From Bryobacterales bacterium (GTDB lineage: Bacteria > Acidobacteriota > Terriglobia > Bryobacterales > UBA6623): a DNA stretch of 64,000 nucleotides. Below are positions 7,994-58,462 of the stretch, piece after piece. The translations under genes were made by a program, and so were the position numbers. The stretch spans positions 3,526,382-3,590,381 of the forward strand of contig OZ253444.1 of assembly GCA_965261065.1 (NCBI GenBank), read 5' to 3'. Numbering within the stretch: the first letter of the stretch is position 1; each line of letters begins with the position of its first letter. Under the pieces are notes generated by a model that saw only the letters and a list, made by a program, of their open reading frames with translations, was not told the DNA's origin and searched no databases.

Positions 7994-8968
7994 ATGTCAG
8001 TGTTCCTCGATAGCGTCGTCGCCCGCGCTCGCACACTCAACAAGCGGGTCGTCTTCCCCGAGGGCGACGATGAACGCGTTCAGGCGGCGGCTGAGCGCCT
8101 GGCCCGGGACCACGTCCTCGCACCCATCCTGGTCAGCACGAACGACAACGCGCCGGCGGGCGTGACCATCCTCCATCCCAAGACCTACGCTCATGCCGAC
8201 CGCCACGTGCGTCTACTCCTCGAGCGCCGCCGGGCCAAGGGCATGACCGAGCGCGAGGCGCGAGACACAGCCGCGCAGCCACTGTACTTTGCCTCCCTGC
8301 TGCTGGCCCACGGAGAAGCCGACGGTCTCGTCGGCGGCGCCGGCAATACCACGGCCGAAACCGTGCGGGCGGCGATCTACTGTCTCGGCATCAAACCGCG
8401 GTACCGGTTGATGTCGAGCTTCATGATGCTTGTCCATCCCAACGAGAGCTTCGGCAGCCGCGGCGTGCTCGTGTTCGCGGACGCCGCTGTCGTACCCGAC
8501 CCGAATGCCGGACAGCTCGCCGACATTGCCATTGCTACTGCTGAGAACACGCGCAAGTTCCTCTCCGACCCGCCCCGCGTAGCGATGCTTTCGTTTTCGA
8601 CCAAAGGGAGCGCCCGCCACCCCATGGTCGAGAAGGTCGCCGAGGCCGTGCGGATCGTGCAACAGCGCGCGCCCGAGCTCACCATCGACGGAGAGTTGCA
8701 GGCCGACGCCGCGCTGGTCGTGTCGGTCGGACGGAGCAAAGCACCGGGTTCCCCAGTCGCAGGCCGCGCCAACGTGCTCATCTTTCCCGATCTCAATTCG
8801 GCCAATATCGGCTACAAGCTCGCTGAGCGTCTCGGCGGCGCGCAGTCGCTCGGCCCGTTCCTGCAGGGGCTCTCGAAACCCGCCAACGACCTATCCCGCG
8901 GCTGCTCGGCCGACGACATCTACTACGTCGCCGCCATCACGGCTCTTCAGGCTCAGAAAGAAGTGTAG
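7994..8968 (+). CDS. pta: Phosphate acetyltransferase
   Basis: 324 aa starting [29 protein letters not shown]..., with the PTA_PTB-type core ...[14 protein letters not shown]...SFSTKGSA...[10 protein letters not shown]. Confidence 0.85.
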
Positions 8969-11996: not shown

Positions 11997-14792
11997 ATGG
12001 TTGGCCGCACCATCTCGCACTACAAGATCCTCGATAAGCTCGGGGAGGGCGGCATGGGCGTGGTCTACAAGGCCGAAGACACCCGACTCGACCGGTTGGT
12101 GGCGCTGAAGTTCCTGTCCGTCAGTGAGCGCACCGACGAAGAGGACAAGGCGCGTTTCGCGCGCGAGGCCCGAGCCGCCGCCGCCCTCGACCACCCCAAC
12201 ATCTGCACCGTCTACGAAATCGACGAGGTGGAAGGCCGCTCGTTCATCGCGATGGCCTTCTTGAAAGGCCGAACCGTGCAGCAGATGGTCGAGACCGCGC
12301 CGGTCCCGATCGACGCGGCGTTGGACCTAGCCATGCAAGCCGCCAAGGGGCTCGCGGCGGCCCACCAGAACGGCATCGTTCACCGCGACATCAAGAGCGC
12401 CAACCTGATGGTCACCAACCCCACCGCGGGCAGCGAAGCGCAACTGAAGATCATGGACTTCGGCTTGGCGCAACTCACCGCCGGAGCCAGCAAGCTCACC
12501 GTCGAAGGATCCACTTTGGGGACCGCCGCCTACATGTCTCCGGAGCAGGCCCGCGGCGACAAGGTGGATCACCGCACCGATCTTTGGTCGCTCGGCGTGG
12601 TGTTCCACGAACTGATCACCGGGCAATTGCCATTTCGCGGCGAGTACGAGCAGGCGATCATCTACTCGATCCTCCACGAACCCCCCGAGCCGATCAGCTC
12701 GCTACGTAGTGGAGTAGGCCTCGAGCTCGAGCGCATTGTCAACAAGGCCCTGGCAAAGGACCCCGACGACCGCTACCAAAGCGCTGTGGATCTACTTGTC
12801 GATCTACGTACGCTCAGGAAGGAGCGCGAGTCGATCGTAAGCCGCATCACTCATCCCTCGCACGTCACACAGGCGCACGCCACCCAGGCGGGGACGCCTA
12901 CGGCTTCGGCGTCTGCCCGTATGGGTAAGCCAGCAGCCCCGACCATGGGCAGCGCGGGGACTACCACGCAAGGGGCTCCCTCTGCCGCTCCGCATCGGCA
13001 TCCCTTCTTCCATCGCAGGTGGGTCAAGTTTGCAGGGCTGGGGCTCGCGCTGTTCGTCGTGTTCGTTGCCGCGCGATGGGTGCCGCCCATGTGGGATCGA
13101 CCAATGGGGAAGATGGACGGGCCGCTGTTTGGTTGGCGTGGACGCGGGGAGCCGCCGCGAATCGCCCCCATCACGAGCGATGCGGGGATTGAATCCTTCG
13201 CCTCGTTCTCGCCCGACGCCAGCCAGATTGCCTACACCTGGGACGGCGGGAGCGGAGGCAACTCGAACATCTACGTCAAGCTCATCGACGGCGGGGCCTC
13301 GCTGCGCCTCACCGACAGCTCCGCCATCGACAGCAGCCCCGCCTGGTCGCCCGACGGCCGCAACATAGCCTTCCTGCGCTACCAGCGCGGATCCGCGGGC
13401 GTCTACCTCGTCCCGCCCATCGGCGGGGCCGAACGCAAGATCGCCGACGTCCGGATTCCGCGGCGCAGTCATGTGCTCCGAAACTTGGCCTGGTCACCGG
13501 ACGCCAAGCACCTGGTCCTGGTCGAGGGAGGCGCAGCCGGGGAGCCGGGTGGAACCCAGCTGCTCACGATCAGTAGCGGCGAGCGCACCGCGATTCTCGA
13601 AGGCAGGCGGCGGGGCGGCTTCCGTCACAGCCCTGCGTTCTCACCCGATGGCCGCGCGATCGCCTTCCTGCAGTCCGTGGGCTTGAGCGCTGACGACATC
13701 TACATCGTGAGGCTCGACCAGGATCTTCAAGCAGCCGGCGAGCCGCGGCGAGTGACGGAAGATGAAGCGCGCATCGACGGCCTGGTTTGGGCGGTGGACG
13801 GTGAATCGATCATCTTCTCGTCCGAACGCAACGGCCAAAGGGGGCTGTGGCGTGTACCGGCCCGCGGCGGCCGGATCTTTCCCCTGCCCGGCGCCGGCGA
13901 GGGCGCCCGGCTTCCCGCCGTCTCCGCCGACGACAGCAAGCTCGCGTACACACGGTCGATGCGGGATCTCAACATCTGGCGCCAGAGCCTGGCAGGGGAC
14001 ACCGAGCCCGAACCGCTGATCCGTTCCACCCGCCTCGACCATCTGCCGCGCTATTCGCCCGACGGCCGCCGTATCGCCTTCATCTCTGACCGCACGGGTA
14101 GCATGCAGCTCTGGGTGGCCGACAACGACGGGACCAACGCGCTTCAGCTCACCTCCTACGAGGGCGAGTTGGTCACCCTGCCAAACTGGTCCGCCGATAG
14201 CCGCCGCATCGCGGTGCAAGTCATTGAGCGCGACCGCTCCCACATCGACCTGGTGAACGTCGAAGACCGCTCTCGCCGCCGTCTCGAACTCCCCGAGGAG
14301 GGCGGCATCGCTCCCTCTTGGTCGCACGACGGCCGATGGATCTACCTTACCCGTCGCTTCCAGGGTGTGTGGAAGTTCCCGATTCCCGATGGTGTTGACG
14401 CCGGCGCTGAACCGGTGCAGGTCGTTGCCGCCGGCGGCTTTGCGCAGGTATCGCCGGACGGCAAGTACCTCTATTTGCTTACGCGGGGACGTAGCGAAGG
14501 AGGTGTCATGCGGGTGCCGCTCGATGGCGGGGAAGAGTCGGTACTCCCTATCCAAGCAGCCCGCGGCCAGTTTACGGTCACGGAGTCCGGCATCTACTTC
14601 CTCGGTCGAGGCGGCGATTTCAACCTGTTCGACTTCGCGACAGGCCAAGTGAAGACGCTCGCAACCATCGAGGGCGTGGCAGACGGCTTCCGGGCTGCCT
14701 CATTCTCGGTTTCACCCGACGGTCGCTCGCTGCTGTTCGTCCGCAACGACCGCAACGAAGCCGACCTGATGCTGATCGAAAACCTGCGCTAA
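11997..14792 (+). CDS. Ser/Thr protein kinase fused to TolB-like beta-propeller repeats
   Basis: 931 aa with Hanks-kinase motifs GEGGMGVVYKA, HRDIKSANL and DFG, then a TM segment, then about 9 repeats of the (W/F/Y)SPDG(R/K)xIAF type. Confidence 0.85.
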   Translation: MVGRTISHYKILDKLGEGGMGVVYKAEDTRLDRLVALKFLSVSERTDEEDKARFAREARAAAALDHPNICTVYEIDEVEGRSFIAMAFLKGRTVQQMVETAPVPIDAALDLAMQAAKGLAAAHQNGIVHRDIKSANLMVTNPTAGSEAQLKIMDFGLAQLTAGASKLTVEGSTLGTAAYMSPEQARGDKVDHRTDLWSLGVVFHELITGQLPFRGEYEQAIIYSILHEPPEPISSLRSGVGLELERIVNKALAKDPDDRYQSAVDLLVDLRTLRKERESIVSRITHPSHVTQAHATQAGTPTASASARMGKPAAPTMGSAGTTTQGAPSAAPHRHPFFHRRWVKFAGLGLALFVVFVAARWVPPMWDRPMGKMDGPLFGWRGRGEPPRIAPITSDAGIESFASFSPDASQIAYTWDGGSGGNSNIYVKLIDGGASLRLTDSSAIDSSPAWSPDGRNIAFLRYQRGSAGVYLVPPIGGAERKIADVRIPRRSHVLRNLAWSPDAKHLVLVEGGAAGEPGGTQLLTISSGERTAILEGRRRGGFRHSPAFSPDGRAIAFLQSVGLSADDIYIVRLDQDLQAAGEPRRVTEDEARIDGLVWAVDGESIIFSSERNGQRGLWRVPARGGRIFPLPGAGEGARLPAVSADDSKLAYTRSMRDLNIWRQSLAGDTEPEPLIRSTRLDHLPRYSPDGRRIAFISDRTGSMQLWVADNDGTNALQLTSYEGELVTLPNWSADSRRIAVQVIERDRSHIDLVNVEDRSRRRLELPEEGGIAPSWSHDGRWIYLTRRFQGVWKFPIPDGVDAGAEPVQVVAAGGFAQVSPDGKYLYLLTRGRSEGGVMRVPLDGGEESVLPIQAARGQFTVTESGIYFLGRGGDFNLFDFATGQVKTLATIEGVADGFRAASFSVSPDGRSLLFVRNDRNEADLMLIENLR

Positions 14793-14882
14793 CCAGCCAA
14801 GAGCTGCGCCCTCGATAACCCGAAGTGGCGACGATGCAGCTTGTAGGGGTGGACCGCTGCGTCCGCCCCGGCGCCGGGTATT

Positions 14883-16248
14883 AACCGGGCACATGGGTAA
14901 CACATGATGCCAAGCACATAGGTAACACTTTGAGGCATAGAACATTTCTGGGAGGGAATGCTTTATGCCGTGGCAGGAGACCTGTGTGCGAGACGAGAGA
15001 ACCCATTTTATCGTGGACTGGGAAAGAGACGAGGAGTCGATGGCCGAGCTGTGCCGGCGCTACTCGGTGAGCCGCAAGACCGGCTACAAATGGCTGCAGC
15101 GCTACCAGCAGCAGAGCTGGGAAGGTTTGCAGGACCACTCCCGGGCGCCGCAACGCCATCCCGGTCAGACCGCGGCCGCGATCGAGCAAGAGATTCTCGC
15201 TCTGCGGGTGCAGCACAGTCGCTGAGGTGCGGTCACCTTGAGGGCGCGGCTGCAGCGAAGGCAGCCCGACGTGGCATGGCCGGCGGTGAGCACGATCGGA
15301 AATCTGCTGCGACGACACGGTCTGAGCGTGCCCCGACGACGCCGGCCCCGCGCCGCACCGACCCCGCTGCCGCTGACGCCAGGCAAGCAGCCCAACCAGG
15401 TTTGGTGCGCCGACTTCAAAGGCTGGTTTCGCACCCAAGACGGCCGGCGCTGCGATCCCTTAACGATCTCGGACGCGGCCAGCCGCTACCTGTTGCGGTG
15501 CCCGGCGGTGACGAAACCGGACGGGGACCATGTTCGGCCGTTGTTCGAGGCGACGTTTCGAGAGTTTGGACTGCCGCGGGTGATGCGCACCGACAACGGG
15601 CCGCCGTTTGCGACCCTGGCGGTGCACGGGCTGGGGCGGCTGGCAGTGTGGTGGATCAAGTTGGGGATCTGTCCCGAGCGGATCGAGCCGGGACATCCGG
15701 AACAGAACGGGCGGCATGAGCGGATGCACCGTACGCTGAAGCAAGAGACCGCCGCGCCGCCAGCGGCGAATCTGCGAGCGCAGCAACGGGCGTTTGATGG
15801 CTTTCGCAGCGACTACAACGAGGAGCGACCGCACCAGGGACTGGAGTTGCGAACCCCTGGTGAGTGTTATCACGGCGCGGCGCGGGCGTATCCGTCGCTG
15901 GTGGACGAGCCGGAGTATGCGGCGCCGATGCAGGTGCGGCGCGTGATGGATGGGCGGATTCGCTGGCGGCGTCAACGAGTGTTCGTCGGCAAGGGACTCA
16001 ACGGGGAGCGGGTCGGGGTGGAGGAGATCGAGGAGGGCGTGTGGCGAGTGTGGTTTTCCTTTTATGAGTTGGGAGTATTCGAGGAACGAGAGCGGCGGTT
16101 GCGCCCGAGCAAGGGCCCAGCGGCGGGCCCTTCGTCCGGGGGTGGGACTTGACTCTGGTCGCCCTCCGGGCTCCCTGCGTCAAGCCCCACCCCGGACGAA
16201 AAGTGTTACCTATGTGCTTGGCATAAAGTGTTACCTATGACCCGGTCA
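14883..16248 (+). mobile_element. IS481-family insertion sequence
   Basis: ~48-bp imperfect terminal inverted repeats at 14883-14930 and 16201-16248 (..CCGGGCACATGGGTAACAC...ATGCCAAGCACATAGGTAACACTT) enclose an HTH plus rve-type ORF. Confidence 0.85.
14965..16152 (+). pseudogene. IS481-family transposase with one in-frame TGA
   Basis: ORFs 14965-15225 and 15238-16152 are in the same frame, separated by TGA at 15226-15228 (..LRVQHSR*GAVTLRARL..). DDE contexts are WCADFK, MRTDNGPPF and HPEQNGRHERMHRTLK. Confidence 0.85.
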
Positions 16249-16464
16249 GTTCACTGTAGGCGGCTTCTCTTTCGCGCAGAAACCGAGAGCGACTTCGCAC
16301 GCCGGGGTGGACGCAGCGGTCCACCCCTACACCATGAACTGAGTTGCGAACTGAGCCGGTGGTAGGTACACCTCGCCTAACGAGAACAGAATTCGCGCTA
16401 CGCCCGGCATAACGCTCTAATAGCCCGTTGGTGCGATCTCGTGCTTGATGCTGGCTAGGCGCGG

Positions 16465-32325: not shown

Positions 32326-33489
32326 GTGTAGTGCGTCAAGCAGATTGCACCTTATGCAGGGCGGCACGTCCTCGCTTGACTTTCTCGAGGATGTCGGAGG
32401 CGGTCGCTGTCCAGATGAAGGGCGTGGGATGCTCGTTGTGCTGGGCGATGTAGTCGTCAATGGCGGCGACGAGCTCGTCCACGCTGCGAAACACGCCGCG
32501 GCGCAGGCGCTTGACGGTGAGATCGCGAAAGAATCGCTCGACCATGTTCAGCCACGACGCCGAGGTCGGGGTGAAATGAATGTGGAAGCGCGGGTGACGA
32601 TCGAGCCAACGCTTCACAGCGGCATGCTTGTGGGTGGCATAGTTGTCCACGATGAGATGAAGCTGTTTGTCCTTGGGAGTGCGGCGGTCAATTAAGCGCA
32701 GGAAGCGCAACCATTCCTGGTGGCTGTGTCGGGGCATGCACTCGGCGATCACGCTGCCGTCAAGAGTGTTGAGCGCCGCAAACAGGGTGGTCGTGCCGTT
32801 GCGCTTGTAATCGTGGGTCATCGTTTGGCCGCGTCCCTTTTTGAGCGGCAGGCCGGGTTGGGTGCGATCGAGGGCTTGGATTTGGGACTTCTCATCGAGC
32901 GAGAGAACCAGAGCATGCTCAGGCGGATTGAGATAGAGTCCGACGATGTCGTCGAGTTTCTCGGCGAAACGCGGGTCATTGCTGAGCTTGAAGGTCTTGA
33001 CGCGGTGGGGCTTGAGGCCATGGGCGCGCCAAATCCGTCCCACGGTGGAAGCGCTGACGCCGGCCGCGGCGGCCATGGTGCGGCGGCTCCAGTGTGTGGC
33101 GTTGGACGGTTTCTCGCGGGTGGTCTTGTGGATGATCTGCTGTACTTTCTGCTTCGAGACGGCAGGTGTACGACCGGGCCGTGGGGCGTCTTTTGCAATG
33201 CCGGCGATGCCGCTTTCGAGAAAGCGCGTGCGCCAGCGGGCCACCAACTGCCGCGAGACACCGAGCTGTGCGGCGATCTGCTTATTCTCGAGACCGTGGG
33301 CGGCCAGCAGGACAATCCTGGCTCGCAGGGCGAGACGAACGGCGACTTGGCGGCCGCGCGCGTAGCGGTCCAACTGCTTGCATTGCGCTGTGTTCAAAGT
33401 TACTGGTTGTGCTCTTCGCATCCCATGCCTCCTGTTAATAGAGACGATGGGAAGCCAATGTAAGTTACAGTATTTATGGTGCACTACAC
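32326..33489 (-). mobile_element. IS630-family element, type B (my label), tandem copy 1
   Basis: 1164 bp with terminal GTGTAGTGC inverted repeats, flanked by TA (32324-25 and 33490-91). Confidence 0.85.
32336..33421 (-). CDS. IS630-family DDE transposase (type B)
   Basis: 361 aa from ATG 33421 ([17 protein letters not shown]...), with AGGAGG upstream. DDE contexts are [17 protein letters not shown] and [10 protein letters not shown]. The longer listed ORF reads through into the neighbouring copy. Confidence 0.9.
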
Positions 33490-33491
33490 TA

Positions 33492-34655
33492 GTGTAGTGC
33501 GTCAAGCAGATTGCACCTTATGCAGGGCGGCACGTCCGCGCTTGACTTTCTCGAGGATGTCGGAGGCGGTCGCTGTCCAGATGAAGGGCGTGGGATGCTC
33601 GTTGTGCTGGGCGATGTAGTCGTCAATGGCGGCGACGAGCTCGTCCACGCTGCGAAACACGCCGCGGCGCAGGCGCTTGACGGTGAGATCGCGAAAGAAT
33701 CGCTCGACCATGTTCAGCCACGACGCCGAGGTCGGGGTGAAATGAATGTGGAAGCGCGGGTGACGATCGAGCCAACGCTTCACAGCGGCATGCTTGTGGG
33801 TGGCATAGTTGTCCACGATGAGATGAAGCTGTTTGTCCTTGGGAGTGCGGCGGTCAATTAAGCGCAGGAAGCGCAACCATTCCTGGTGGCTGTGTCGGGG
33901 CATGCACTCGGCGATCACGCTGCCGTCAAGAGTGTTGAGCGCCGCAAACAGGGTGGTCGTGCCGTTGCGCTTGTAATCGTGGGTCATCGTTTGGCCGCGT
34001 CCCTTTTTGAGCGGCAGGCCGGGTTGGGTGCGATCGAGGGCTTGGATTTGGGACTTCTCATCGAGCGAGAGAACCAGAGCATGCTCAGGCGGATTGAGAT
34101 AGAGTCCGACGATGTCGTCGAGTTTCTCGGCGAAACGCGGGTCATTGCTGAGCTTGAAGGTCTTGACGCGGTGGGGCTTGAGGCCATGGGCGCGCCAAAT
34201 CCGTCCCACGGTGGAAGCGCTGACGCCGGCCGCGGCGGCCATGGTGCGGCGGCTCCAGTGGGTGGCGTTGGACGGTTTCTCGCGGGTGGTCTTGTGGATG
34301 ATCTGCTGTACGTTCTGCTTCGAGACGGCAGGTGTACGACCGGGCCGTGGGGCGTCTTTTGCAATGCCGGCGATGCCGCTTTCGAGAAAGCGCGTGCGCC
34401 AGCGGGCCACCAACTGCCGCGAGACACCGAGCTGTGCGGCGATCTGCTTATTATCGAGACCGTGGGCGGCCAGCAGGACAATCCTGGCTCGCAGGGCGAG
34501 ACGAACGGCGACTTGGCGGCCGCGCGCGTAGCGGTCCAACTGCTTGCATTGCGCTGTGTTCAAAGTTACTGGTTGTGCTCTTCGCATCCCATGCCTCCTG
34601 TTAATAGAGACGATGGGAAGCCAATATAAGTTACAGTATTTATGGTGCCCTACAC
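33492..34655 (-). mobile_element. IS630-family element, type B, tandem copy 2
   Basis: 1164 bp, head-to-tail with copy 1 and sharing the TA at 33490-91; the outer TA is at 34656-57. One inverted-repeat mismatch (GTGTAGGGC). Confidence 0.85.
33502..34587 (-). CDS. IS630-family DDE transposase (type B)
   Basis: 361 aa. It differs from the other copy at E/D (HGL[E/D]NKQ) and K/N (SKQ[K/N]VQQ). Confidence 0.9.
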
Positions 34656-36706: not shown

Positions 36707-37476
36707 TCAAGCCGTTTGTTTGGCCGCTTCGCCATGCTCTGCTCTCTGGATAGTTTTGGCAGCCCTACGACGAGCCGTTGAGGTGCGGTAGGCCCTGCGG
36801 ACTGTGGTGGCCCCAACGCCAAGCTTCGATGCAATCTGGGACCAGCTCATGTCCTCCTGATCGCGCAGCCGCACTACCTCGTCTCGGTCGAACACCATCC
36901 TCGGTCGGCCAATTCGTTTCCCCAACGCCAGTGCTCGCTCGTGCCCCGCTTTGATCGCGTCGACACGCTCCTCGTTCTCCATTTCGGCAAACCATGCTTG
37001 AATCGCCCAGAGCAGCTTGCCCATGGTAGAGCTGATCGCGCCGGTCTGAGACTTCACCGGCACCACGGTCACTTCTGCGTCCGCCAGTTCGTAGACGGTC
37101 GAGATGACCTCACGCATGTCGCGGCCGAGACGTGAGACCTTCCAGACCAGCAAGCGATCGAACTTACGGAGCGCGGCATCCCTCTTCATTCGCTCGAACA
37201 TCGGACGAGATCGGGCGCCCTTGCGACCAGACTTCCCTTGCTCGACGTAGATGTACTGATCAGCGAGACGATCAGCGACGACCTGGTTGACGCGATAGAC
37301 CGTTCGTGGAGGATCTGGGCCCCGGACTTCTTCCGCGACGATGCAGTAGGAGAGATCGTCAGGACCTGACCCCAGTCACGAGGCGACCCGTCCTTCTCAG
37401 CTACTGCAAGCAAGTCCTGGAACTGGTTCTCGCTAGTTTGTCGGTCACTGGAGACCCGGAAATACAAAGCATCCAC
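36707..37476 (-). pseudogene. Serine recombinase/resolvase, frameshifted
   Basis: The N-terminal ORF (37186-37476) begins MDALYFRVSSDRQTSENQ, which contains the catalytic Ser. The remainder sits in another frame (36707-37201): FDRLLVWKVSRLGRD... and HTH MSWSQIASKLGVGATTVRRAY. Confidence 0.75.
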
Positions 37477-42843: not shown

Positions 42844-44499
42844 CTACATCGGTTCGGCAGGTTCTGGAATGTAGGGCAGCTCGATCGTTACTTCGTCTTC
42901 GGCCGACAAGCTCAGGCGCTTGCCGGAAGCCCCGAGAGCACGACGGACTTCGGGGTCCCAGAGATCGAACGTCTCGGGGAAGGGGACTACATAGAAAGTG
43001 TAGGTGCCGGGCGGCATCCCGGGCAGTGTGAAATTCGCGTCGGCGCCGAGGCGCAGGCGGCCACGGTATTGATAGCCGTCTGTCTTCTCGGAAATCACCA
43101 TGACCCATGCCGTTGAAAGCTCCTCAGCCTCAACACCCTCCGGCGGCTTGACAGTACCGTTTACAACGGCGCCGTCGAACGCGACTTCGAGCTGGAGGCC
43201 GGAAACCGACGTGTCGGCCGGTACCGTGATTTCAGGTTTGTCGAGCCGCCGGCCCGCCAGCGTGACGGCCCGCAAGTAGCCTCCCGTGGGCAGGTTCTGA
43301 AGACTAATACGATACAGGCCCGGCAGCAGGTCGTCGATCTCGAACAAGCCGCTGGTGTGCGGGGCGGGAATGGACGCTCTGCGGCTCCACTGGTTCGCGA
43401 TCATACCGTTGAGAACTACCCGAAGCGGCCTGGGCCGTTCGCTGGGGGGCGAGGCTTGGTCCTCGGGCGGGTCCTGAAAGACGACCTCGCCGCTTGCCGT
43501 CAATCCGTCCGTTGTAACCAGGACGACATCGTCGGTGGCAGAATCGATCACCTGTACCGCTTGACGGGCGTAGCGCCGCTCGCCGCGCACGTGGGCGATG
43601 ATGTAGTAGGAACCGGGTGCGAGTCCGCGGAAGGAAAACAATCCTTCCGGACCGGCGATGATGTTGCCGCGGCTGTGCCTGTCGTTCCCGTCAACGCGCA
43701 GAAAACAGGGGCAGGGCTTGCCGGTCTTGCCGTCGAGCACAACCCCGCTCAAGCTGGTTTTCGGGGCCACGCCTAGCTCGAAATCCACCGCGCTGATTTC
43801 GGTGCCCCAGTTCACCCGGATGAGGGCCGCCTCGTCGGCTTCGGGTACGCCGGGGTAGAACTCGCGAGCGCTCTCGTAGTAGAGGATGCCGGGCGGGGCG
43901 GTTTCGCGGGGCGGCCACGCGCGGAGAGCGTACTTGCCTGGGGCTAGTCCGTAGATGCGGTATTCGCCGAGGTCGTTCGACGTTGCCGATCCGGCGCCGC
44001 TCCAGCGGTTGCGGTCGGGGTCGTAAGACCGGCGGTACGCCCTGACTTGCGCACCGCGCAGCGGATCGCCGTAAGCGTCGATAACGCGTCCGGTGATGAC
44101 GGCGGACGGGCGCAACTCGATTCGTACATTTTCGCGCGACTCGCCCTCGGACAGGCGGAGCGTCGCGGATGTATGGAACATGCCGCGCCGTTCGTAACCG
44201 GTCTTGTCGACCGCAAGGGAGTATCGACCCGCCGCGAAGCCCGCGAAGTGGAACCTGCCGTCGGCTGCGGTTGTGGCGCGTCGGGGGCGCGGGCGTTGGC
44301 CTCGCCCTCCGCCTCGCGACGAGTTGCCGCCGAGCATGACAGCCGCGCTTGCCAGGGGGTCGCCGGTTTTCGACGATACGACGATTCCGCCGATTTCACC
44401 GCTCGGCTCTTCCAACGTGACGGCCTCCGCGGTTTGGGCGTTGGCGATGCCGGCCACGGCCGGCAGGAGGGTTATGAGAATCAGGACCGTTTGTTTCAT
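42844..44499 (-). CDS. Secreted carboxypeptidase-regulatory-like repeat protein
   Basis: The start is ATG 44499 (MKQTVLILITLLPAVAGIANA). Repeats include GxVxDxxGxPLxxAxV and PGxYxL (GRYSLAV, GKYALRA, GSYYIIA, GLYRISL, GTYTFYV). Its ATGA overlaps the upstream gene. Confidence 0.7.
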   Translation of the reverse strand: MKQTVLILITLLPAVAGIANAQTAEAVTLEEPSGEIGGIVVSSKTGDPLASAAVMLGGNSSRGGGRGQRPRPRRATTAADGRFHFAGFAAGRYSLAVDKTGYERRGMFHTSATLRLSEGESRENVRIELRPSAVITGRVIDAYGDPLRGAQVRAYRRSYDPDRNRWSGAGSATSNDLGEYRIYGLAPGKYALRAWPPRETAPPGILYYESAREFYPGVPEADEAALIRVNWGTEISAVDFELGVAPKTSLSGVVLDGKTGKPCPCFLRVDGNDRHSRGNIIAGPEGLFSFRGLAPGSYYIIAHVRGERRYARQAVQVIDSATDDVVLVTTDGLTASGEVVFQDPPEDQASPPSERPRPLRVVLNGMIANQWSRRASIPAPHTSGLFEIDDLLPGLYRISLQNLPTGGYLRAVTLAGRRLDKPEITVPADTSVSGLQLEVAFDGAVVNGTVKPPEGVEAEELSTAWVMVISEKTDGYQYRGRLRLGADANFTLPGMPPGTYTFYVVPFPETFDLWDPEVRRALGASGKRLSLSAEDEVTIELPYIPEPAEPM

Positions 44500-46061
44500 G
44501 GCACGGCAGTGAGGTCGATCTCGATATCGCTGCCGGCTTCGACAGGGAAAGCGCGAGCCGCCGACCCGGCCTCGTCCCATACGTCGTCGCCGCGGACGGC
44601 GCGGGCGCTCAGATCCCGCCACGCACAGATGCGGTAGTCGCCGGGCACAACCTTGTCGAACGCGAACCGGCCGTTCTGGTCGGCTTGCACCGAACGGATC
44701 GCGTGCGGGCCCTTGAGCCCGACGCGAAACTGTGCCGCTTCGCGCACCTCCCCGGCCTCGCGCGGCTTCTTGACGCGCCCGTGCACTGTGGCGAAATCGC
44801 CCGAGAGGACGACCTCGATCTGCTCCACACGTCCTTCGGCCAAGTCGATCGTCCGGGCCGGCACGGGCTTGCCGTCGAGGCGCACTTCCGTGACGAAGAA
44901 GAGCGAGGGCGCGGCCCACCAGCGAGAGACGTCGACTTCGTACGTTCCGGGGGAGAGGCCCATGCTTTCAAACTCGAAGCCGGGCGGCTCCGCGTCGGCC
45001 GCGGCGACTTGCTCACCATCGCCGCCACGGAAGACCAGGTAGACCTCGCCGCTCGGCCGGCCCACGGCCAAGACATCCCGGTCGAAAACCACGCGGCCTT
45101 GCAGGCCCGTCTGCGGCCGAGGCGACAGCACCAGGTCCGAGATGTGGTCGTTGACCTCGATGGAGCCTAGAGGAACGCGCCGGGATCCGTCGGAGTCGGT
45201 GGAATCGGAACGGCGAATGTAGGCCGCGGCGTACTTGCCAGGCCTCACATTCGGGAAGGTAAAGGCGCCGCCCTGTTCGAGCCGGGCAGCCGTCCGGCCT
45301 CGTCCGCGGCCGATCAGCGCAATCATGTGGGCGCCGCTGCCGGAGTGGTCGACGCCGGTCAGACGGCCGGAGACCTTGAAAAGCTGCCGCTCTTCCGTGC
45401 GCGTGTGGAGAACGATCTGCACGCCTCGAATGTCATCGCCTTCCTCGACCTCGACCTCCGTTGGCTCAGCTTCCAGGGCTCCCCGAAAGCGCCTCGACCG
45501 GCTTCCCCGCACGCGGAGTCGGTACTCACCCGGCTCGAGGTTCGCGATGCGGAAGATGCCACGATCGTCCGAAGACACCCGGCGGCGAACGTCACGGTCG
45601 CCACTCGCCGAGGTCGTGGTCGAGAGGCTCGCGTCGCCAACGGGCTCGCCGAGTTCGTCGATCACGCGCCCGTTGATGGCGGCCGCGCGGCCCATCTCGA
45701 AATCAATCTGGGCGCAGTCTTCCGGCTGCGTGCAGTCAAGCACGACGCGGCCGCCGTTGTGACCGCCGGAGGTCTTCGTGTAGTAACCGTTACGTTCGAC
45801 GCCGAGGGCGACGCGCGGCGAGGGCAGGCCGGTGATCCAGTAGCGGCCCTGCTCGTTCGTCTTGGTAACGGCAAGGATGCCGGCGGTAGGATCGCCGGTG
45901 CGGCCGACGTCGTGGGCGATGACGCGGACGCGGGCCAGGGCGACCGTGCGTTGGCCGTTGTGCGTAACAACGCTGCCACTGACCGAGGTTTCCGCGACAA
46001 GAATACCCGCGGCGGCGAGAACCAGAACCGGTAGCAAGGCCTTGCGAAGAGGGCTTGGCAT
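44496..46061 (-). CDS. Secreted carboxypeptidase-regulatory-like repeat protein
   Basis: The likely start is ATG 46061 (MPSPLRKALLPVLVLAAAGILVA). Repeat style matches the downstream gene (GRVIDELGEPVGDASL, PGEYRLRV, PGKYAAAY, PGTYEVDV, PGDYRICA). Confidence 0.7.
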   Translation of the reverse strand: MPSPLRKALLPVLVLAAAGILVAETSVSGSVVTHNGQRTVALARVRVIAHDVGRTGDPTAGILAVTKTNEQGRYWITGLPSPRVALGVERNGYYTKTSGGHNGGRVVLDCTQPEDCAQIDFEMGRAAAINGRVIDELGEPVGDASLSTTTSASGDRDVRRRVSSDDRGIFRIANLEPGEYRLRVRGSRSRRFRGALEAEPTEVEVEEGDDIRGVQIVLHTRTEERQLFKVSGRLTGVDHSGSGAHMIALIGRGRGRTAARLEQGGAFTFPNVRPGKYAAAYIRRSDSTDSDGSRRVPLGSIEVNDHISDLVLSPRPQTGLQGRVVFDRDVLAVGRPSGEVYLVFRGGDGEQVAAADAEPPGFEFESMGLSPGTYEVDVSRWWAAPSLFFVTEVRLDGKPVPARTIDLAEGRVEQIEVVLSGDFATVHGRVKKPREAGEVREAAQFRVGLKGPHAIRSVQADQNGRFAFDKVVPGDYRICAWRDLSARAVRGDDVWDEAGSAARAFPVEAGSDIEIDLTAVP

Positions 46062-46394
46062 CGGTTGCAGGGTCGCGGCAGCGGCCGGCCTCGGCACACG
46101 GGGATGACCGGGGTGCCCGGACCGTCCGAACTAATCATACGATTGCCGGGAAGCGGCGGTTTCAGTCAAGATCGGGAGCAACTGGATTTGTCCCGAAAAG
46201 CCGCATCGTCATTGGGATCGTAACGTACATGAAATGTTTGTTTTCGCCCGTCTTGGTGCGTTATCATTGCTTATCCATTCTGGTTGAGTGGAGTCGACGA
46301 CAGCTTTCTGTCAGGGGTGAGCTGTCAGTTCCGAACTGAGGGCGGATCGTAGTGGCGTTGTCGATGTGCCGGCTCCTGCTGAGGGGGCTCGAGG

Positions 46395-47474
46395 TTGCCG
46401 CTAGTGGACTGTCGCAAAGAAAACGTAGTGGTAAACGCGCAGCCGGGCGGGCGCAGGGGCCCGCCCCTACCGTCTCGCTGGATACTCCTACAACGAAGGA
46501 ATCTCCACGATATTCCACTAGCTCATTCGTTACACTGGAAGCTCAGCCCGCTGCTGCTTCTGCTATCTTTTCTCCTGCTCTGTCCAGGTCCGGCCGTCGG
46601 CCAGGCGCCCGCCGAGCCGAACCCATACGTCAGCAGCCAGGTCTGCAAGGCGTGCCATCAGGACCTCTGGCAAAGTTTCAACCGCAATCCGCACTTCAAA
46701 TCGGTCGCTTCGGGCAAGAAACCGCCGGAGCAAACCGGGTGCGAGGGTTGCCACGGTCCTGGCGGGCTGCACGTGAAGGGAATGGGCGACAAGACGAAGA
46801 TCCGCCGTTTCCCCTTGCTACAGCCGAACGAAGTGCTCAACGAGTGCCTCGCGTGTCACGCCAAGGACTTCGGCAAGATGAACATCCGGCGGTCCTCGCA
46901 TTCGACCGCCGAGGTGAGCTGTATCAACTGCCACTCGATTCACGGTTCCCAAGAGGGACGCGCCCTGCTGGCCGACAAGCAGCGCAACGTCTGCTACGGC
47001 TGCCACATCGAGATTCGCGCTCGCTTCGACCTGCCCTTCAAGCACCGCGTCAATGAAGGCGTCATCGACTGCACCGACTGCCACAACCCGCACGGCGCGC
47101 CGATGGCGACGTGGAGTATCGCGCAGGCCCCGCGCATGGTTTCGCACGGCTTCGGCAACGACCTGCCTTGCCTGAAGTGCCACACCGACAAGCGCGGCCC
47201 GTTTGTGCACGAGCATCCCCCGGTGCGCGTGGAGGGCTGCCCGATGTGCCACGACCCCCACGGCAGCACCAATCCGCGGCTGCTGCAGCGGCCGGCGGTC
47301 TTCACGCTTTGTCTCGAGTGCCACAACAGCGTGGTCGGGTTCGGGCCGCGGATGGGCGGTATTCCCGCCCCGGGCCGGCGCTTTCATGATCTCTCCCAGC
47401 CACAGTTTCAAAATTGCGTGACGTGCCATTCGAGGATTCACGGCTCGAATACCGATCCGCTCTTTAGACGATGA
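46395..47474 (+). CDS. Periplasmic decahaem c-type cytochrome (MtrA/DmsE/PioA-like)
   Basis: Ten CxxCH motifs (CKACH, CEGCH, CLACH, CINCH, CYGCH, CTDCH, CLKCH, CPMCH, CLECH, CVTCH) sit in about 290 mature residues. The signal-like segment LSPLLLLLSFLLLCPGPAVGQA is present. The true start is unclear, and no ATG/GTG lies near the signal peptide. Confidence 0.8.
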   Translation: MPLVDCRKENVVVNAQPGGRRGPPLPSRWILLQRRNLHDIPLAHSLHWKLSPLLLLLSFLLLCPGPAVGQAPAEPNPYVSSQVCKACHQDLWQSFNRNPHFKSVASGKKPPEQTGCEGCHGPGGLHVKGMGDKTKIRRFPLLQPNEVLNECLACHAKDFGKMNIRRSSHSTAEVSCINCHSIHGSQEGRALLADKQRNVCYGCHIEIRARFDLPFKHRVNEGVIDCTDCHNPHGAPMATWSIAQAPRMVSHGFGNDLPCLKCHTDKRGPFVHEHPPVRVEGCPMCHDPHGSTNPRLLQRPAVFTLCLECHNSVVGFGPRMGGIPAPGRRFHDLSQPQFQNCVTCHSRIHGSNTDPLFRR

Positions 47475-49831
47475 CGACCCGCGGCGCATGGCTTTGCTGG
47501 CTTGCCCTTCTAGCGGCGACGCTAGTGAGGGCGCAGCCGATCATTACGCCCACGCCCGACATGCCCGACGAGATCGAAGAGGTGGGCGACTACACCATCT
47601 CGAACTCGTTCGAAGTCGGCTACCGCATGAGCAATGTGAGCGGCAACCATGACGTCTACCGCAGCAGCATCAACTTCGGCAACGGCGTGCGGTTGTTCGA
47701 AGGGCAGTTACGCATCAACTCGAAGGAAGGCAAGGGGACGCTGATCGATAACCTGTCGTTCCACACCGTCGGACAAGGCGAGGACCCCTACCAGTTCACA
47801 CGGTTCGAGATCGAGAAGAACGGCTGGTTCCGCTACGACATGCAGCTTCGCGTCAACCGTTTTTTCAACCGGCTGCCGTCGCTATGGAGCGGCGAGCGCG
47901 GGCAGTGTGTGCTGACCGGGACATGGGTAACACTTTATGCCAAGCACATAGGTAACACTTTTTCGGGCCGGCTGATGCGAAGTCTGCGCTAACTCTCGTG
48001 GAATCAGGGCACTGGCAAAGCTTTCTTCGGCCGAGGCTAGGCTGGGCCATCGCCTTGGTAAGCGGAGGAAACCAAAGGAGTTCGGCCCCGGTTCTGTCAA
48101 GGCCTCGCGCCCGCGAGCCGACAGGGGAGCCTTGACAGGTTCGGGGGCGAACTCCAGCCTTGAATAGCAAGGCGATGGTCCATGTGTTACCTATGTGCTT
48201 GGCATAAAGTGTTACCCATGTGCCCGGTCAATACCGTGGAGCGAGCGGACGTTCCAGAACCACGACCTGCGGCTATTCCCCGATTCGCGGTTCGAGATCC
48301 TGCTCGGCTATGACCGCAATTCCCAAACCGGCCCGGGTTTCAGGTCCGAAGGCATCTCGCGCGACTTTGGGGCCTTCCGCAACGAGAACTTCCTGCGGCT
48401 GACCCGCGACCTGCGCCGGCAGAACAACCAGTACCGCGCGGGCTTCGATACGCGGGTGGCTGGGCTGGCGATTACGTTCATGCAGGCTTTCGACAACTAC
48501 AAAGAGGATACGCTCTACGGAGACGGCTCGCTATCTCCGTCGCTCTCGCCAAACGTGCAGCCGGTCGAGAGCTTGCAGCGCAACGAGCCGATCCATGGCA
48601 ACACGCCGGTCACGTCCGTCGCCATCCGGACAGAGAAGGAGCACAAGATCGGCTTCCAGGGCCGCTATGTGTACGCCAGTGGCAACCGCAACTTTCTGCT
48701 TTCCGAAGACATCACGGCGATCAATTCCGACCTGAATCTGTCCAGCCTCCGGCACACCTTCATCATGGGCGACGCCCGGCGCAAGCAAGGTAGCGGCGAC
48801 TTCACCGTCGCGTTCATGCCGACCCACCGCTGGACGCTCAGCAACACGACCTCGGTCAACAATACCCGCATCAGCGGCAATTCAGCGTTTCTCGAAGTCA
48901 CCGCCTCGACCTCGCAGTTTCAGGAGTTCGAGCACCTAGGCATTCGCCACATCTCGAACGCCAGCGAGGTCAACTTCCGCGCGCACCCAAAGCTCGGGGT
49001 GTACGGCGCGTATCGTTTCTCGCGGCGGCGCATCCAGACGCGCGAGAGCTTCCACTTCCCCGACTTCGATTTCGAAGTCGATCTTTTCGAGCAAGAGAGC
49101 GACATCAACTCGAGTGTCGGCGGGTTTCGCTGGCGTCCCCGGCGAGAGTTGCGGGTATCGTTTGACGCGGAGTTCGGCGAGGCGGATCTGCCGTTTACGC
49201 CGCGCAGCGAGCGGAAGTTTCATTCGGAAACCGTTCGCGTGCAGTGGCGCAAGAACGGGTTCTTGCTCGGTGGGAACTTCAAGAGCCGCGAAAACGACAA
49301 TTCCGCGACGCTGATCACACACAGCTCTGTCGGGCGGCACTACGGCTTCAACAGCTCGTGGGTGAATCCAGACGGCAGGCTTACCCTCGACGGCGGCTAC
49401 ACCAAGGTCGAACTCGACACGGCCTCAGGCATCTTCAACTTCTTCCCCGAAGGCGAGACACCGGCGGCAAGCCGCGCCTTCTACACGATGAACCTGCACA
49501 ACGTGTATTTCAGCACTCGCATTCAACCGCGTGACCGGCTGACTCTGTACCTTGCCTACAACCTGTCGAAAGATACGGGTGATGGGCGCGGGCAGCCGAG
49601 CTTTGGGCTGGCTTGGAGCCAACCTACTCGAATTTTAGTTTCGACGGAACGAACTTCTTCAACAGCTTCCCGCTCACCTATCAGTCGCCCTCAGCGCGCG
49701 TGTCGGTGACGCTGCACGAACACCTTTCGTGGAATCTCGGCTGGCAGTTTTACAACTACGGTGAGCGCTTCGTCGGCGAGCAGAATTATCACGCCCATGT
49801 GAGCTACTCCAGCCTGCGTTGGAGTTTCTAG
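47471..49831 (+). pseudogene. Outer-membrane beta-barrel partner of the decahaem cytochrome (MtrB/PioB-like), broken by a MITE and a frameshift
   Basis: The ATG overlaps the cytochrome stop (ATGA) and is followed by signal peptide MTTRGAWLCWLALLAATLVRA. The MITE interrupts the gene at 47913-48230. The frame changes near 49580-49615. The last frame ends ...YSSLRWSF, an OMP-type C-terminal Phe. Confidence 0.6.
47913..48230. mobile_element. 318-bp MITE with the terminal inverted repeats of the IS481 element
   Basis: The ends TGACCGGGACATGGGTAACACTTTATGCCAAGCACATAGGTAACACTT and the complement at 48183-48230 match the IS481 inverted repeats at 14883-14930/16201-16248. There is no coding capacity. 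Confidence 0.85.
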
Positions 49832-49967
49832 CCGAACAACCGTGCCCCGAAAGCGAGTGCGGGGTAAATCCACCACCCGGTGGCTCAGGGGCTGGGTACC
49901 CATCCCTGGCGTTCCAGACTCGGGCGCAACGGGCCTCTGCCCGGTTGGGGTCGCAGACCCTGTCGAA

Positions 49968-52551: not shown

Positions 52552-52818
52552 GCCGATCCCGATGCGCCCGACTCGAAACTGGAAGGCTTGGCCCGCCTGT
52601 CGAACCCCGACCACGCCGAAGCAGTCGACCTCGACCAGGACGGCCGCATGGACCTGATAGTGGCCGATCTCGGCGAAGTGATGCCGCTTCAGGGCGATAG
52701 CGCGGTTGATTTGCCCCTCACTCGCGTTCGGGGCTCGGTTGCCTTAACTTGACACCCCGGTCCGAATCACGCTTAGATCAGACGGCACACGTAGGCCAAG
52801 TGAGGAGTTCCGAAATCA

Positions 52819-56941: not shown

Positions 56942-58462
56942 AACATCCATGATAGGTATCTGTCAAGGATGGACGCAGTCATCCGAATCCTCCCGTCAGC
57001 GGGGGCGTTGTCTTCAGCAGTGACGCTTCGCAGCCCGAGCGTTTTTGCGAATCAAGTCGCAAGGTCAACGAGTCACGTGACCAGACATCCATGTGCGCGC
57101 ATCGGGTCGCCCCACCGTACCGGCCGGGGGACCGTCGCGGAAGATTCAGTTTGGGTTTTCAGGCCCGCCGGCCTCGAAACAGAGATACGGACGCATCAGA
57201 AATTTCCCAGGAAACTCCCAGCAAACTCCTTCGCGTAGTCCCCAACAGGCGAGGACCGGCGGGCCGCTCGTGACACCGCACAGCGTCGATGAAACTCTTC
57301 GTTTCTCCTTTTAACAGAAAAAAAGCAAATTCTCCTCGTTACGCCTCGGCCGCAACCCGCGGCACGAACGCGCGGCCACTGGTGTCCACGGCCCGCAGAT
57401 ACGTCACCAACTTGCGCGCCACGGCCAACGTCGCGCGATTGCGAGACCCGCGCGTCAACTCCCGCTCATGGACGTCGTGCAGTTGCGGGTTCCAGCGCGG
57501 CGCGAGTTTCGCCGCCTCGATCAGCACCCGCTGCAAATGCTTGTTGCGCTGCTTCGACAGCGGTCCCCGCTGCGTCTTGCCGGCCGACTCGCGCTGTGCC
57601 GAACACAACCCACAGTAACTCACCGCCTGGCCCAGCGAACCGAAGCGCTCGGGCTCGACGGTCTCCAGCGCCCAGGTCAACGCCGTCACCTCCCCCACGC
57701 CGCGAATCGACTGCAGCAACTCGACGCGTTCCCGCAACAGCGGATGGCGCCGCAATCCGCGCAGTAACTCCTGCTGCAAACGATCGAACATTTCCAGGCT
57801 GCCGCGGGTGATGGCGAGCAGCTCGATCACCGACTCGGGCGTGTCGCGCAGGCTGTCGAGATAGGAGTAGAAATAGTTGCGCCCGTGCAGCCGCCGGGCA
57901 TCGTAGGGTTCGCCCACTTCCATCAGTAGCCCGCTGATTTTGTTCTTCATGCGGACGGCTTCGCCCAGCAGCAGATTGCGATAGCGCAGCACGCGCCGCA
58001 ACTCGCGCAGGGCAGGCGGCGCCACGTAGCAGCGCGGCAGCAGGTTGCAGCGCAGCAGGTCACTGATCTTGGTGGCGTCGAGACGGTCGTTCTTCTTCTT
58101 GGCGCAGGCGATGGCCTTGAGCATGGCCGGGTGTGCGACTTGCAGTTCCTGGGCGAAGGGCTGGAGGTGATCGTAAATCCAGCCGGTAAACAGGGTGGCT
58201 TCGAGCGCGCCCACCCAAGGGCGCTCGAGGGCTGACGCCCAAGCGGTCAGGGCGGCGCGAGTGGCCGCGACCTGACCGCGCTGGACGATCGTTCCGTCCC
58301 CGGTTTTGATGCAGAAGCTGATGCTTTTCTTATGGACATCGAGTCCGATGTAGTAGAGTTCTGGCATGGAATCCTCCTGGGATTGGCTCTGAGCCGACCG
58401 CGTGGCCGCTCTCAGCATTTTGCCCCCGGGAGGATTCCTCTTTGCCACTACCTATGCATTGA
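56942..58462 (-). mobile_element. IS110-family (IS1111-like) insertion sequence
   Basis: About 1.52 kb; the ends are good to roughly +/-5 bp. TGTT is present at both junctions. Subterminal inverted repeat CATAGGTA / TACCTATC(A)TG. There is ~95 nt 5' and ~395 nt 3' of the transposase CDS. Confidence 0.75.
57339..58367 (-). CDS. IS110-family DEDD transposase
   Basis: The start is ATG 58367, with AGGAGG upstream. The N-terminus reads MPELYYIGLDVHKKSISFC and the C-terminal motif is LQSIRGVGEVTALTWALE. Confidence 0.9.
   Translation of the reverse strand: MPELYYIGLDVHKKSISFCIKTGDGTIVQRGQVAATRAALTAWASALERPWVGALEATLFTGWIYDHLQPFAQELQVAHPAMLKAIACAKKKNDRLDATKISDLLRCNLLPRCYVAPPALRELRRVLRYRNLLLGEAVRMKNKISGLLMEVGEPYDARRLHGRNYFYSYLDSLRDTPESVIELLAITRGSLEMFDRLQQELLRGLRRHPLLRERVELLQSIRGVGEVTALTWALETVEPERFGSLGQAVSYCGLCSAQRESAGKTQRGPLSKQRNKHLQRVLIEAAKLAPRWNPQLHDVHERELTRGSRNRATLAVARKLVTYLRAVDTSGRAFVPRVAAEA

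Follow-up and report, generated by a model that had tools for sequence, protein, structure and literature searches.

Porin-cytochrome conduits are a Gram-negative route by which electrons pass to or from insoluble iron, manganese and humic substances. In MtrAB (PDB 6R2Q; PMC7198977) and PioAB (PMC6831781), a decahaem cytochrome lies inside an outer-membrane barrel, and its haems form a chain across the outer membrane. For Acidobacteria, candidate homologues of mtrA and mtrB are on record (PMC5900883, PMC3669403, PMC10654088), and canonical MtrCAB has been reported in a few Bryobacterales (PMC8805035). Here we describe a gene pair for a decahaem cytochrome and a divergent outer-membrane barrel in a soil Bryobacterales bacterium (GCA_965261065.1, contig OZ253444.1, positions 3,526,382–3,590,381 of the forward strand; this stretch of 64,000 nt is called the window). 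From comparisons of sequence and predicted structure, we conclude with a probability of roughly 85% that the two genes encode the components of a trans-outer-membrane electron conduit of the MtrAB/PioAB/MtoAB type, and that the barrel gene was recently disabled by a miniature inverted-repeat transposable element (MITE). An earlier note on this DNA had proposed such a module. The kind of system is well known, but the two-gene family with its divergent barrel appears to have been unannotated so far.

The first gene of the pair (Table 1) encodes a protein of 359 residues with exactly ten CxxCH motifs at residues 84–341, the number that the earlier note had counted. This is far beyond chance, because no other open reading frame (ORF) in the window carries two or more such motifs. 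A hydrophobic core and an AxA-like cleavage site of a signal peptide are present, although the n-region is lengthened by an insertion, and the predicted mature protein of 288 residues starts at about nucleotide 46608, after ...AVGQA. The product therefore has the features of a periplasmic decahaem cytochrome of about 300 residues, as predicted from its motifs and signal peptide. The search for a DmsE-type profile that the earlier note had advised gave 251 bits with NCBIfam model TIGR03508 (DmsE-family decahaem cytochromes; cut-off 192.2), in which residues 81–354 aligned to model positions 2–257 of 258. The score with NF041028, the GSU2203 family, was 207 bits and thus far below the cut-off of 325. 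The best match among solved structures was MtrA (6r2q_A; E = 1.8e-33, residues 66–325 of 333), and Pfam returned paired-CXXCH and multihaem domains, as expected. The ratio of non-synonymous to synonymous substitution rates (dN/dS) of the cytochrome gene was 0.02–0.08. By its profile and structure matches, we assign the predicted protein to the DmsE/MtrA family of decahaem cytochromes.

The stop codon of the cytochrome gene (TGA, 47472–47474) overlaps the start codon of the barrel gene (ATG, 47471–47473) as ATGA, an overlap that had already been pointed out. Once its two lesions are repaired, the barrel gene has 676 codons and equals in length the intact orthologue P0001 (676 residues, 95% identical). 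The earlier note had described a gene of about 680 codons with a signal peptide and a C-terminus in phenylalanine, and this description holds: a signal peptide is seen, with its cleavage site between ...TLVRA and QP, and the protein ends in ...SLRWSF. A terminal phenylalanine is the usual signal for outer-membrane barrel assembly. It was found in 57 of 64 relatives of the barrel.

We modelled P0001 with AlphaFold2, using an alignment of 64 sequences. The model was an all-beta barrel (mean predicted local distance difference test score 83.4, predicted template modelling score 0.76), with about 26 long strands and no plug domain according to DSSP. The top match of a Foldseek search against the PDB was MtrB (6r2q_B; E = 3.5e-13, template modelling (TM) score 0.66/0.69), and all following ranks were 22-stranded TonB-dependent transporters with a TM score of about 0.43. 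The intact orthologue is thus predicted to form a large, unplugged barrel with the fold of MtrB. The earlier note had named the barrel prediction beforehand as the test that could refute its assignment to the MtrB/PioB type, and the assignment withstood it.

A search with the repaired barrel sequence yielded about 120 full-length relatives of 665–680 residues. Those bearing a name are all called "hypothetical protein" and come from Acidobacteria or Bryobacterales; a Pfam domain is found in none. An exhaustive HMMER search of 1.84 billion representative proteins matched 1,870 clusters (50% identity) at E ≤ 1e-3, 1,199 at E ≤ 1e-10 and 394 at E ≤ 1e-30. Against NCBIfam, the barrel fragments of the window gave only a weak match to NF041027 (the GSU2204 family), with a best score of about 20 bits for the window and for P0001 and a cut-off of 350 bits. 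Of the 64 relatives, 32 matched this model (best E = 8.6e-9), whose family has been listed as an MtrB/PioB-type barrel (PMC13188914). The distant relative P0389 scored 24.3 bits with PF11854 (cut-off 23), and other distant relatives gave weak matches to TIGR03509. A broadened barrel profile (A4) that included distant relatives from the exhaustive search aligned nearly end to end with a profile of Shewanella MtrB (A3) in HHalign (probability 97.1%, E = 5.3e-11, 531 columns). The link to MtrB became significant only after these distant relatives had been added, and the identity between the barrel and MtrB is about 12–14%. Judged by fold and by profile-profile comparison, we regard the barrel as a remote homologue of MtrB. 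In one relative, P0098 (768 residues, on a 3.6-kb contig), a single ORF spans the last two-thirds of the cytochrome and the barrel; rather than a natural fusion, this most probably reflects a frameshift or an artefact of gene calling.

The pairing of the two genes is conserved. Scanning one genome per GTDB species, we found barrel relatives in 519 genomes of the Bryobacterales and related groups, and the 79 loci retrieved were all from Bryobacterales, Solibacteraceae or other Terriglobia/Acidobacteriota metagenome-assembled genomes (MAGs). An ORF with ten CxxCH motifs ends at the barrel start in 75 of the 79, at barrel identities of 33–100%. Three of the four exceptions are truncated by contig ends, and in the fourth (L010) the ORF has nine CxxCH motifs. 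Stop/start overlaps of the ATGA type also occur in relatives that are 34–83% identical. A barrel gene directly downstream of a decahaem gene is therefore the rule in the family as well as in the window. The relatives, to which the earlier note had looked for intact versions, do include them (P0001, encoded by locus L007). When all ORFs of 83 loci were clustered, the cytochrome and the barrel alone were universal.

The homology of both parts and their strict genetic coupling make an MtrAB/PioAB-like mechanism the most likely one. The decahaem cytochrome would be exported by Sec, with its haems attached in the periplasm, and would be threaded into the MtrB-like barrel of about 26 strands. The haem chain would then span the outer membrane and link periplasmic redox carriers with extracellular substrates. 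Both the formation of this complex and the direction of electron flow through it are inferences.

Several observations weigh against this reading of the locus. The three barrel fragments of the window matched no Pfam model, PF11854 included, nor did they match TIGR03509, and neither of these two models matched any of the 64 relatives; by the scores of the curated MtrB/PioB models, the barrel is not a member. The narrow family profile (A1) found no match in the PDB by sequence even at E ≤ 10, and its HHalign comparisons with a single MtrB sequence, recovered from a PDB alignment, and with the Shewanella MtrB profile were not significant. The structural case is based on a predicted model of an orthologue, not on the window sequence. 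No third partner gene was conserved among the 83 loci, in which the window neighbours recurred only in the closest relatives, and no inner-membrane quinol dehydrogenase or periplasmic shuttle was found near the module. Finally, a 39-residue extension of the cytochrome signal peptide, described below, could impair its export, and the 1-bp frameshift in the barrel gene may be an assembly or sequencing error. The search with MtrB/PioB profiles that the earlier note had recommended thus had a divided outcome: the curated models failed to recognise the barrel, and the broadened profile aligned to MtrB.

Some of these results would also be expected if the barrel were an ordinary porin or transporter that stands beside a periplasmic cytochrome and has no role as its sheath. 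The unmatched curated models would fit such a protein, as would a Foldseek list numerically dominated by TonB-dependent transporters. However, MtrB was the clear top structural match by TM score, no plug domain was predicted, the profile-profile alignment to MtrB was near full-length, and the stop/start coupling to a ten-haem gene persists across the whole identity range of the 75 loci. We therefore consider an ordinary porin highly improbable and retain the cytochrome sheath.

By the curated thresholds the barrel lies outside PF11854 and TIGR03509, and by its matches it is best placed in a large unannotated sister clade. We tentatively suggest, with somewhat less than even confidence, that it may be the founder of a large clade of cytochrome sheaths resembling MtrB, one missed by the MtrB/PioB models curated in Pfam and NCBIfam and, in the members examined (Bryobacterales and related Acidobacteriota), always paired with a DmsE-type decahaem cytochrome. 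If this is true, surveys that need a recognisable MtrB or PioB would systematically underestimate the ability of the Acidobacteria that abound in soil and peat to exchange electrons with iron minerals or humic substances. The divergent barrel should help in the annotation of iron-cycling genes in metagenomes from soil and peat.

Compared with Shewanella MtrAB, the module has a decahaem cytochrome of the same family and a barrel of the same fold, encoded by adjacent genes in the same order, cytochrome then barrel. It differs in that it lacks an MtrC partner, and in that its barrel stays below the PF11854/TIGR03509 thresholds, at the low identity given above, and has no N-terminal CxxC. The earlier note had found no MtrC-like outer cytochrome adjacent to the pair and had inferred a two-gene layout. 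Both points are upheld: the 64-kb window contains no second multihaem ORF, an outer decahaem cytochrome of the MtrC/OmcA type, as in the three-component MtrCAB, is neither present in the window nor conserved in the related loci, and the layout without MtrC is conserved across these loci. With PioAB of Rhodopseudomonas palustris and MtoAB of Sideroxydans lithotrophicus, the module shares a core of two genes, for a decahaem cytochrome and a barrel, with no outer cytochrome of the MtrC type. The MtrB/PioB models recognise PioB and MtoB but not the barrel described here. The module also differs from these systems in that no PioC, MtoD or CymA gene adjoins it and in that its cytochrome has no long N-terminal extension of the PioA type. 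More generally, no equivalent of MtrC, CymA, PioC (a high-potential iron-sulfur protein, HiPIP) or MtoD adjoined the module in the window or in the related loci examined.

The nearest sequence-defined neighbours of both genes are GSU2203 (OmcK) and GSU2204 of Geobacter (NF041028 and NF041027), but the scores are far below the respective cut-offs of 325 and 350 bits. Proteins of the GSU2204 family carry a CXXCH motif or selenocysteine, in contrast to the barrels described here, which contain no CxxC at all. The "Group 5" MtrCAB clusters of Bryobacterales (Baker et al. 2022, PMC8805035) come from the same bacterial order and are the same kind of conduit. However, those clusters comprise three genes with MtrC, and their MtrB is found by standard searches, while the module described here belongs to a separate two-gene family that such searches would miss. 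The two-gene version is much more widespread in the Bryobacterales. The Pcc systems of Geobacter (OmaB/OmbB/OmcB; PMC4282303, PMC4245776), which combine an octahaem cytochrome in the periplasm, a porin-like protein that is smaller and unrelated, and a dodecahaem outer cytochrome, are analogous to the module and not homologous.

The direction of electron flow cannot be read from the sequence, and we lean slightly to export. Export of electrons to Fe(III), humic substances or other extracellular acceptors has about an even chance, oxidation of Fe(II) or electron uptake is a possibility to which we give clearly less weight, and another role takes up what remains. A module specifically dedicated to iron oxidation and electron uptake, like PioAB or MtoAB, would agree with the two-gene layout, as no MtrC-like cytochrome occurs in the window or is conserved in near relatives. 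It would also agree with the lack of CxxC in all 64 barrels (0/64), a point that takes its weight from Wee et al. 2014, in which the motif reportedly characterises the MtrB of metal-reducing gammaproteobacteria and is lacking in MtoB and PioB. Against this dedicated function, no gene for PioC/HiPIP, MtoD or CymA adjoins the module. Moreover, Fe(III) reduction, seen in Paludibaculum fermentans (PMC8407742), is the sole known physiology of the order, and the nearest sequence-defined relatives, GSU2203 and GSU2204, come from an iron reducer, Geobacter, in which iron oxides induce them (PMC4070692). We lean to export because of these last two observations, and regard a dedicated iron-oxidising system as possible though doubtful. 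MtoAB and PioAB form no function-specific clades (PMC8805035).

The barrel gene is interrupted after codon 146 by the MITE, an element of 328 bp without a long ORF. Its terminal inverted repeats of 41 nt (47918–47958 and 48184–48224) are 98% complementary, and a 3-bp target duplication, GTG, flanks it at 47905–47907 and 48236–48238. The related loci L007 and L008 are about 94–95% identical to the window at the DNA level and lack the element; BLAST alignments with them break at 47907 and 48236 with a 3-bp overlap in the relatives, as expected for an empty site. With the 331 bp gained, the reading frame of the barrel gene is shifted and runs into a stop codon at 47990–47992. The earlier note had placed a MITE at 47913–48230; the insertion itself stands, but these coordinates cover only the core of the element. 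The terminal repeats recur with two mismatches at 14891 and 16240, where they flank an IS481-like insertion sequence (IS) of about 1.38 kb. According to BLAST, the two elements share only their ends of about 50 bp, which indicates the relationship of a MITE to its parent, and the transposase responsible for moving the MITE probably came from the IS481-like element. Inverted repeats, a target duplication, the lack of a transposase and an autonomous element with the same ends together identify the insertion as a MITE.

The second lesion is a frameshift, suspected earlier near 49580–49615 and now traced by comparison with L007 and L008 to a single missing C, lost from GGGCCTGG to leave GGGCTGG, i.e. 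TTTGGG(C)CTGGC. Other long-read MAGs have indels of their own in the barrel gene (7 bp are inserted in L008 and 1 bp is missing from L050), which are possibly sequencing errors or recurrent decay. Such indels would suit the view that the barrel gene is not truly inactivated, the frameshift having arisen in assembly and the MITE being misassembled or present in a minority only, and so would the lack of any decay in dN/dS. The ends of the MITE, however, are clean, its 3-bp target is duplicated, and the window also holds a matching IS, all of which indicates real transposition rather than misassembly, and the MITE by itself is enough to inactivate the gene. An intact barrel gene therefore seems unlikely to us, and we hold to its inactivation.

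The dN/dS values of the barrel were 0.09–0.125, and for the barrel as for the cytochrome, comparisons with the window gave values no higher than those of one relative against another. Since the window values are not raised, the damage to the barrel gene is recent, and no relaxed selection is seen in dN/dS. Together with the absence of both the MITE and the 1-bp deletion from relatives about 95% identical, this agrees with the recent loss of capacity that the earlier note had inferred. In the sequence of events that we propose, the IS481-like element would have mobilised the MITE, whose insertion after codon 146 of the barrel gene would have disabled the conduit; the loss of 1 bp close to the 3' end would be a second lesion in the same gene. 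The cytochrome gene is intact, with its ancestral TTG start and an older 117-bp insertion that lengthens the n-region. The inactivation itself is ordinary, one more MITE-struck gene in an IS-rich genome.

The start of the cytochrome gene had seemed anomalous: the earlier note saw no obvious ATG or GTG near the signal peptide. This is correct, and the sole canonical in-frame start is the TTG at 46395, about 50 codons before the hydrophobic core. In other cytochromes of the family, the start codon (ATG, GTG or TTG) stands immediately ahead of a normal signal peptide. In locus L050, with a barrel 82% identical, the cytochrome gene reads TTG CCG CTA GCT CGT TCA TTA CAT AGG AAG, which translates to MPLARSLHRKLRPLLLL, such a signal peptide, and it lacks the extra bases found in the window. 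The window has TTG CCG CTA G (46395–46404), then 117 extra bases, and then CT CAT TCG TTA CAC TGG AAG. On this alignment, the TTG at 46395 is best read as the ancestral start, displaced from the signal peptide by the 117-bp insertion, which would explain the lack of a nearer start codon. We had considered ATT as the start and dropped it in favour of the ancestral TTG with an insertion. A seemingly absent start codon may thus reflect a small in-frame insertion behind the true start, which calls for caution in gene calling.

The 117 bp consist of a 113-bp element and a duplicated CTAG. The element has imperfect 10-bp terminal inverted repeats (TGGACTGTCG and TGGAATATCG), and the insertion is in frame, free of stop codons, and makes the signal-peptide n-region 39 residues longer. 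It is carried by the window, L008, L007 (with an internal 39-nt deletion) and L002, and the frame is open in the first three. The open frame in three loci and the low dN/dS suggest that the longer pre-protein is tolerated. In L002, a further 191-bp insertion with CTAG at the same site brings a stop codon, which is why only 230 residues were called for the cytochrome there. The CTAG that follows codon 2 of the cytochrome gene (window 46401–46521; L002 8702–8908) has been struck more than once, with CTAG duplicated each time. The window clade carries the 113-bp element at this CTAG, L002 and L003 carry the same element plus the 191-bp element, and L050, a close relative of L002, carries neither. 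The presence of the 113-bp insertion in L002 and not in L050 suggests repeated insertion or excision. No other copy of the 113-bp element was found in the window or in the other 85 loci. Classification as a repeated mobile element was accordingly rejected for want of a second copy, a lone 20-mer match in a metagenome being ascribed to chance. We describe it as an insertion with MITE-like ends and not as a proven MITE, and its mobility is presumed.

Table 1. Features of the cytochrome-barrel locus and of the related insertion sequence, in window coordinates.
Feature	Position	Strand	Basis
IS481-like insertion sequence with ends like those of the MITE	14877–16254		Terminal repeats; LZ_Tnp_IS481/HTH and rve/rve_3 domains
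Conserved non-coding region (leader or promoter) preceding the cytochrome gene, containing GTGCGTTATCATTGCTTATCCATTC	46225–46375	+	Near-invariance among five loci
Decahaem c-type cytochrome gene, DmsE/MtrA/MtoA/PioA family	46395–47474	+	TTG start; CxxCH count, TIGR03508, 6r2q_A match, dN/dS
In-frame insertion directly after cytochrome codon 3	46405–46521	+	Absent from L050; present in window, L008, L007 and L002
Barrel gene, 5' fragment (signal peptide and roughly the first 5–6 strands)	47471–47907	+	Collinear with P0001 residues 1–146
328-bp MITE interrupting the barrel gene	47908–48235		Inverted repeats; empty sites in L007/L008
Barrel gene, middle part (+1 frame relative to the 5' fragment)	48239–49608	+	Collinear with P0001, L007 and L008
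1-bp deletion shifting the frame of the last ~73 codons	49608–49609	+	Alignment with L007, L008, L050 and L002
Barrel gene, 3' fragment (frame back to the first; end ...SYSSLRWSF, then stop)	49609–49831	+	C-terminal sequence; terminal Phe in 57 of 64 relatives

Upstream of the cytochrome gene lies a non-coding leader of about 150 bp that is nearly invariant in the window, L007, L008, L050 and L002, despite synonymous divergence (dS) of up to 0.9 in the genes. Its motif occurs only in the window clade. The leader had no Rfam match and no sigma-70 consensus, and a promoter and terminator scan of it gave nothing convincing. It holds GTTATCATTGCTTATC, whose opposite strand shows two GATAA repeats and recalls a Fur-type box. 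Compared with its relatives, the window alone lacks 28 bp at about 46376, just downstream of the leader.

The window neighbours of the pair are two CarboxypepD_reg proteins, a ferredoxin and Ku. The genes for the two secreted proteins with CarboxypepD_reg repeats (42844–46097, reverse strand) are divergent from the cytochrome gene, an arrangement common to L007, L008, L050 and L002 and missing from more distant relatives. Since no neighbour is conserved across the barrel family, the context gives no clue to the substrate. In a Solibacteraceae subgroup (L059, 319–8945, and 15–17 similar loci), the pair lies directly downstream of Tad/Flp-pilus genes on the same strand (CpaE-like, CpaF, TadB and TadC), and a 1,043-residue beta-propeller/TIG protein and a small outer-membrane barrel are also encoded upstream of it. 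We rejected these neighbours as a general clue to the substrate, the arrangement not being general. FeoAB and DtxR-like repressors are encoded within a few kilobases of the module in L002; as general evidence for a link to iron uptake they were likewise rejected, the genes being absent from the window.

A GC-rich palindromic repeat, resembling repetitive extragenic palindromic (REP) sequences, lies directly 3' of the barrel stop codon (49834–49923) and occurs again at 52714–52741. The same repeat is found in related loci, namely in L002 at 8779–8865, inside the insertion there, and at 13812–13850. Behind the barrel gene, it may act as a terminator or be a small mobile repeat. The window as a whole is rich in mobile elements (14877–16254, 32336–34587, 36707–37201 and 57339–58448). 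These comprise the IS481-like element, with its transposase frame broken into two parts, a tandem pair of DDE_3 (IS630-type) transposase genes with a near-identical layout, a resolvase and an IS110-family transposase.

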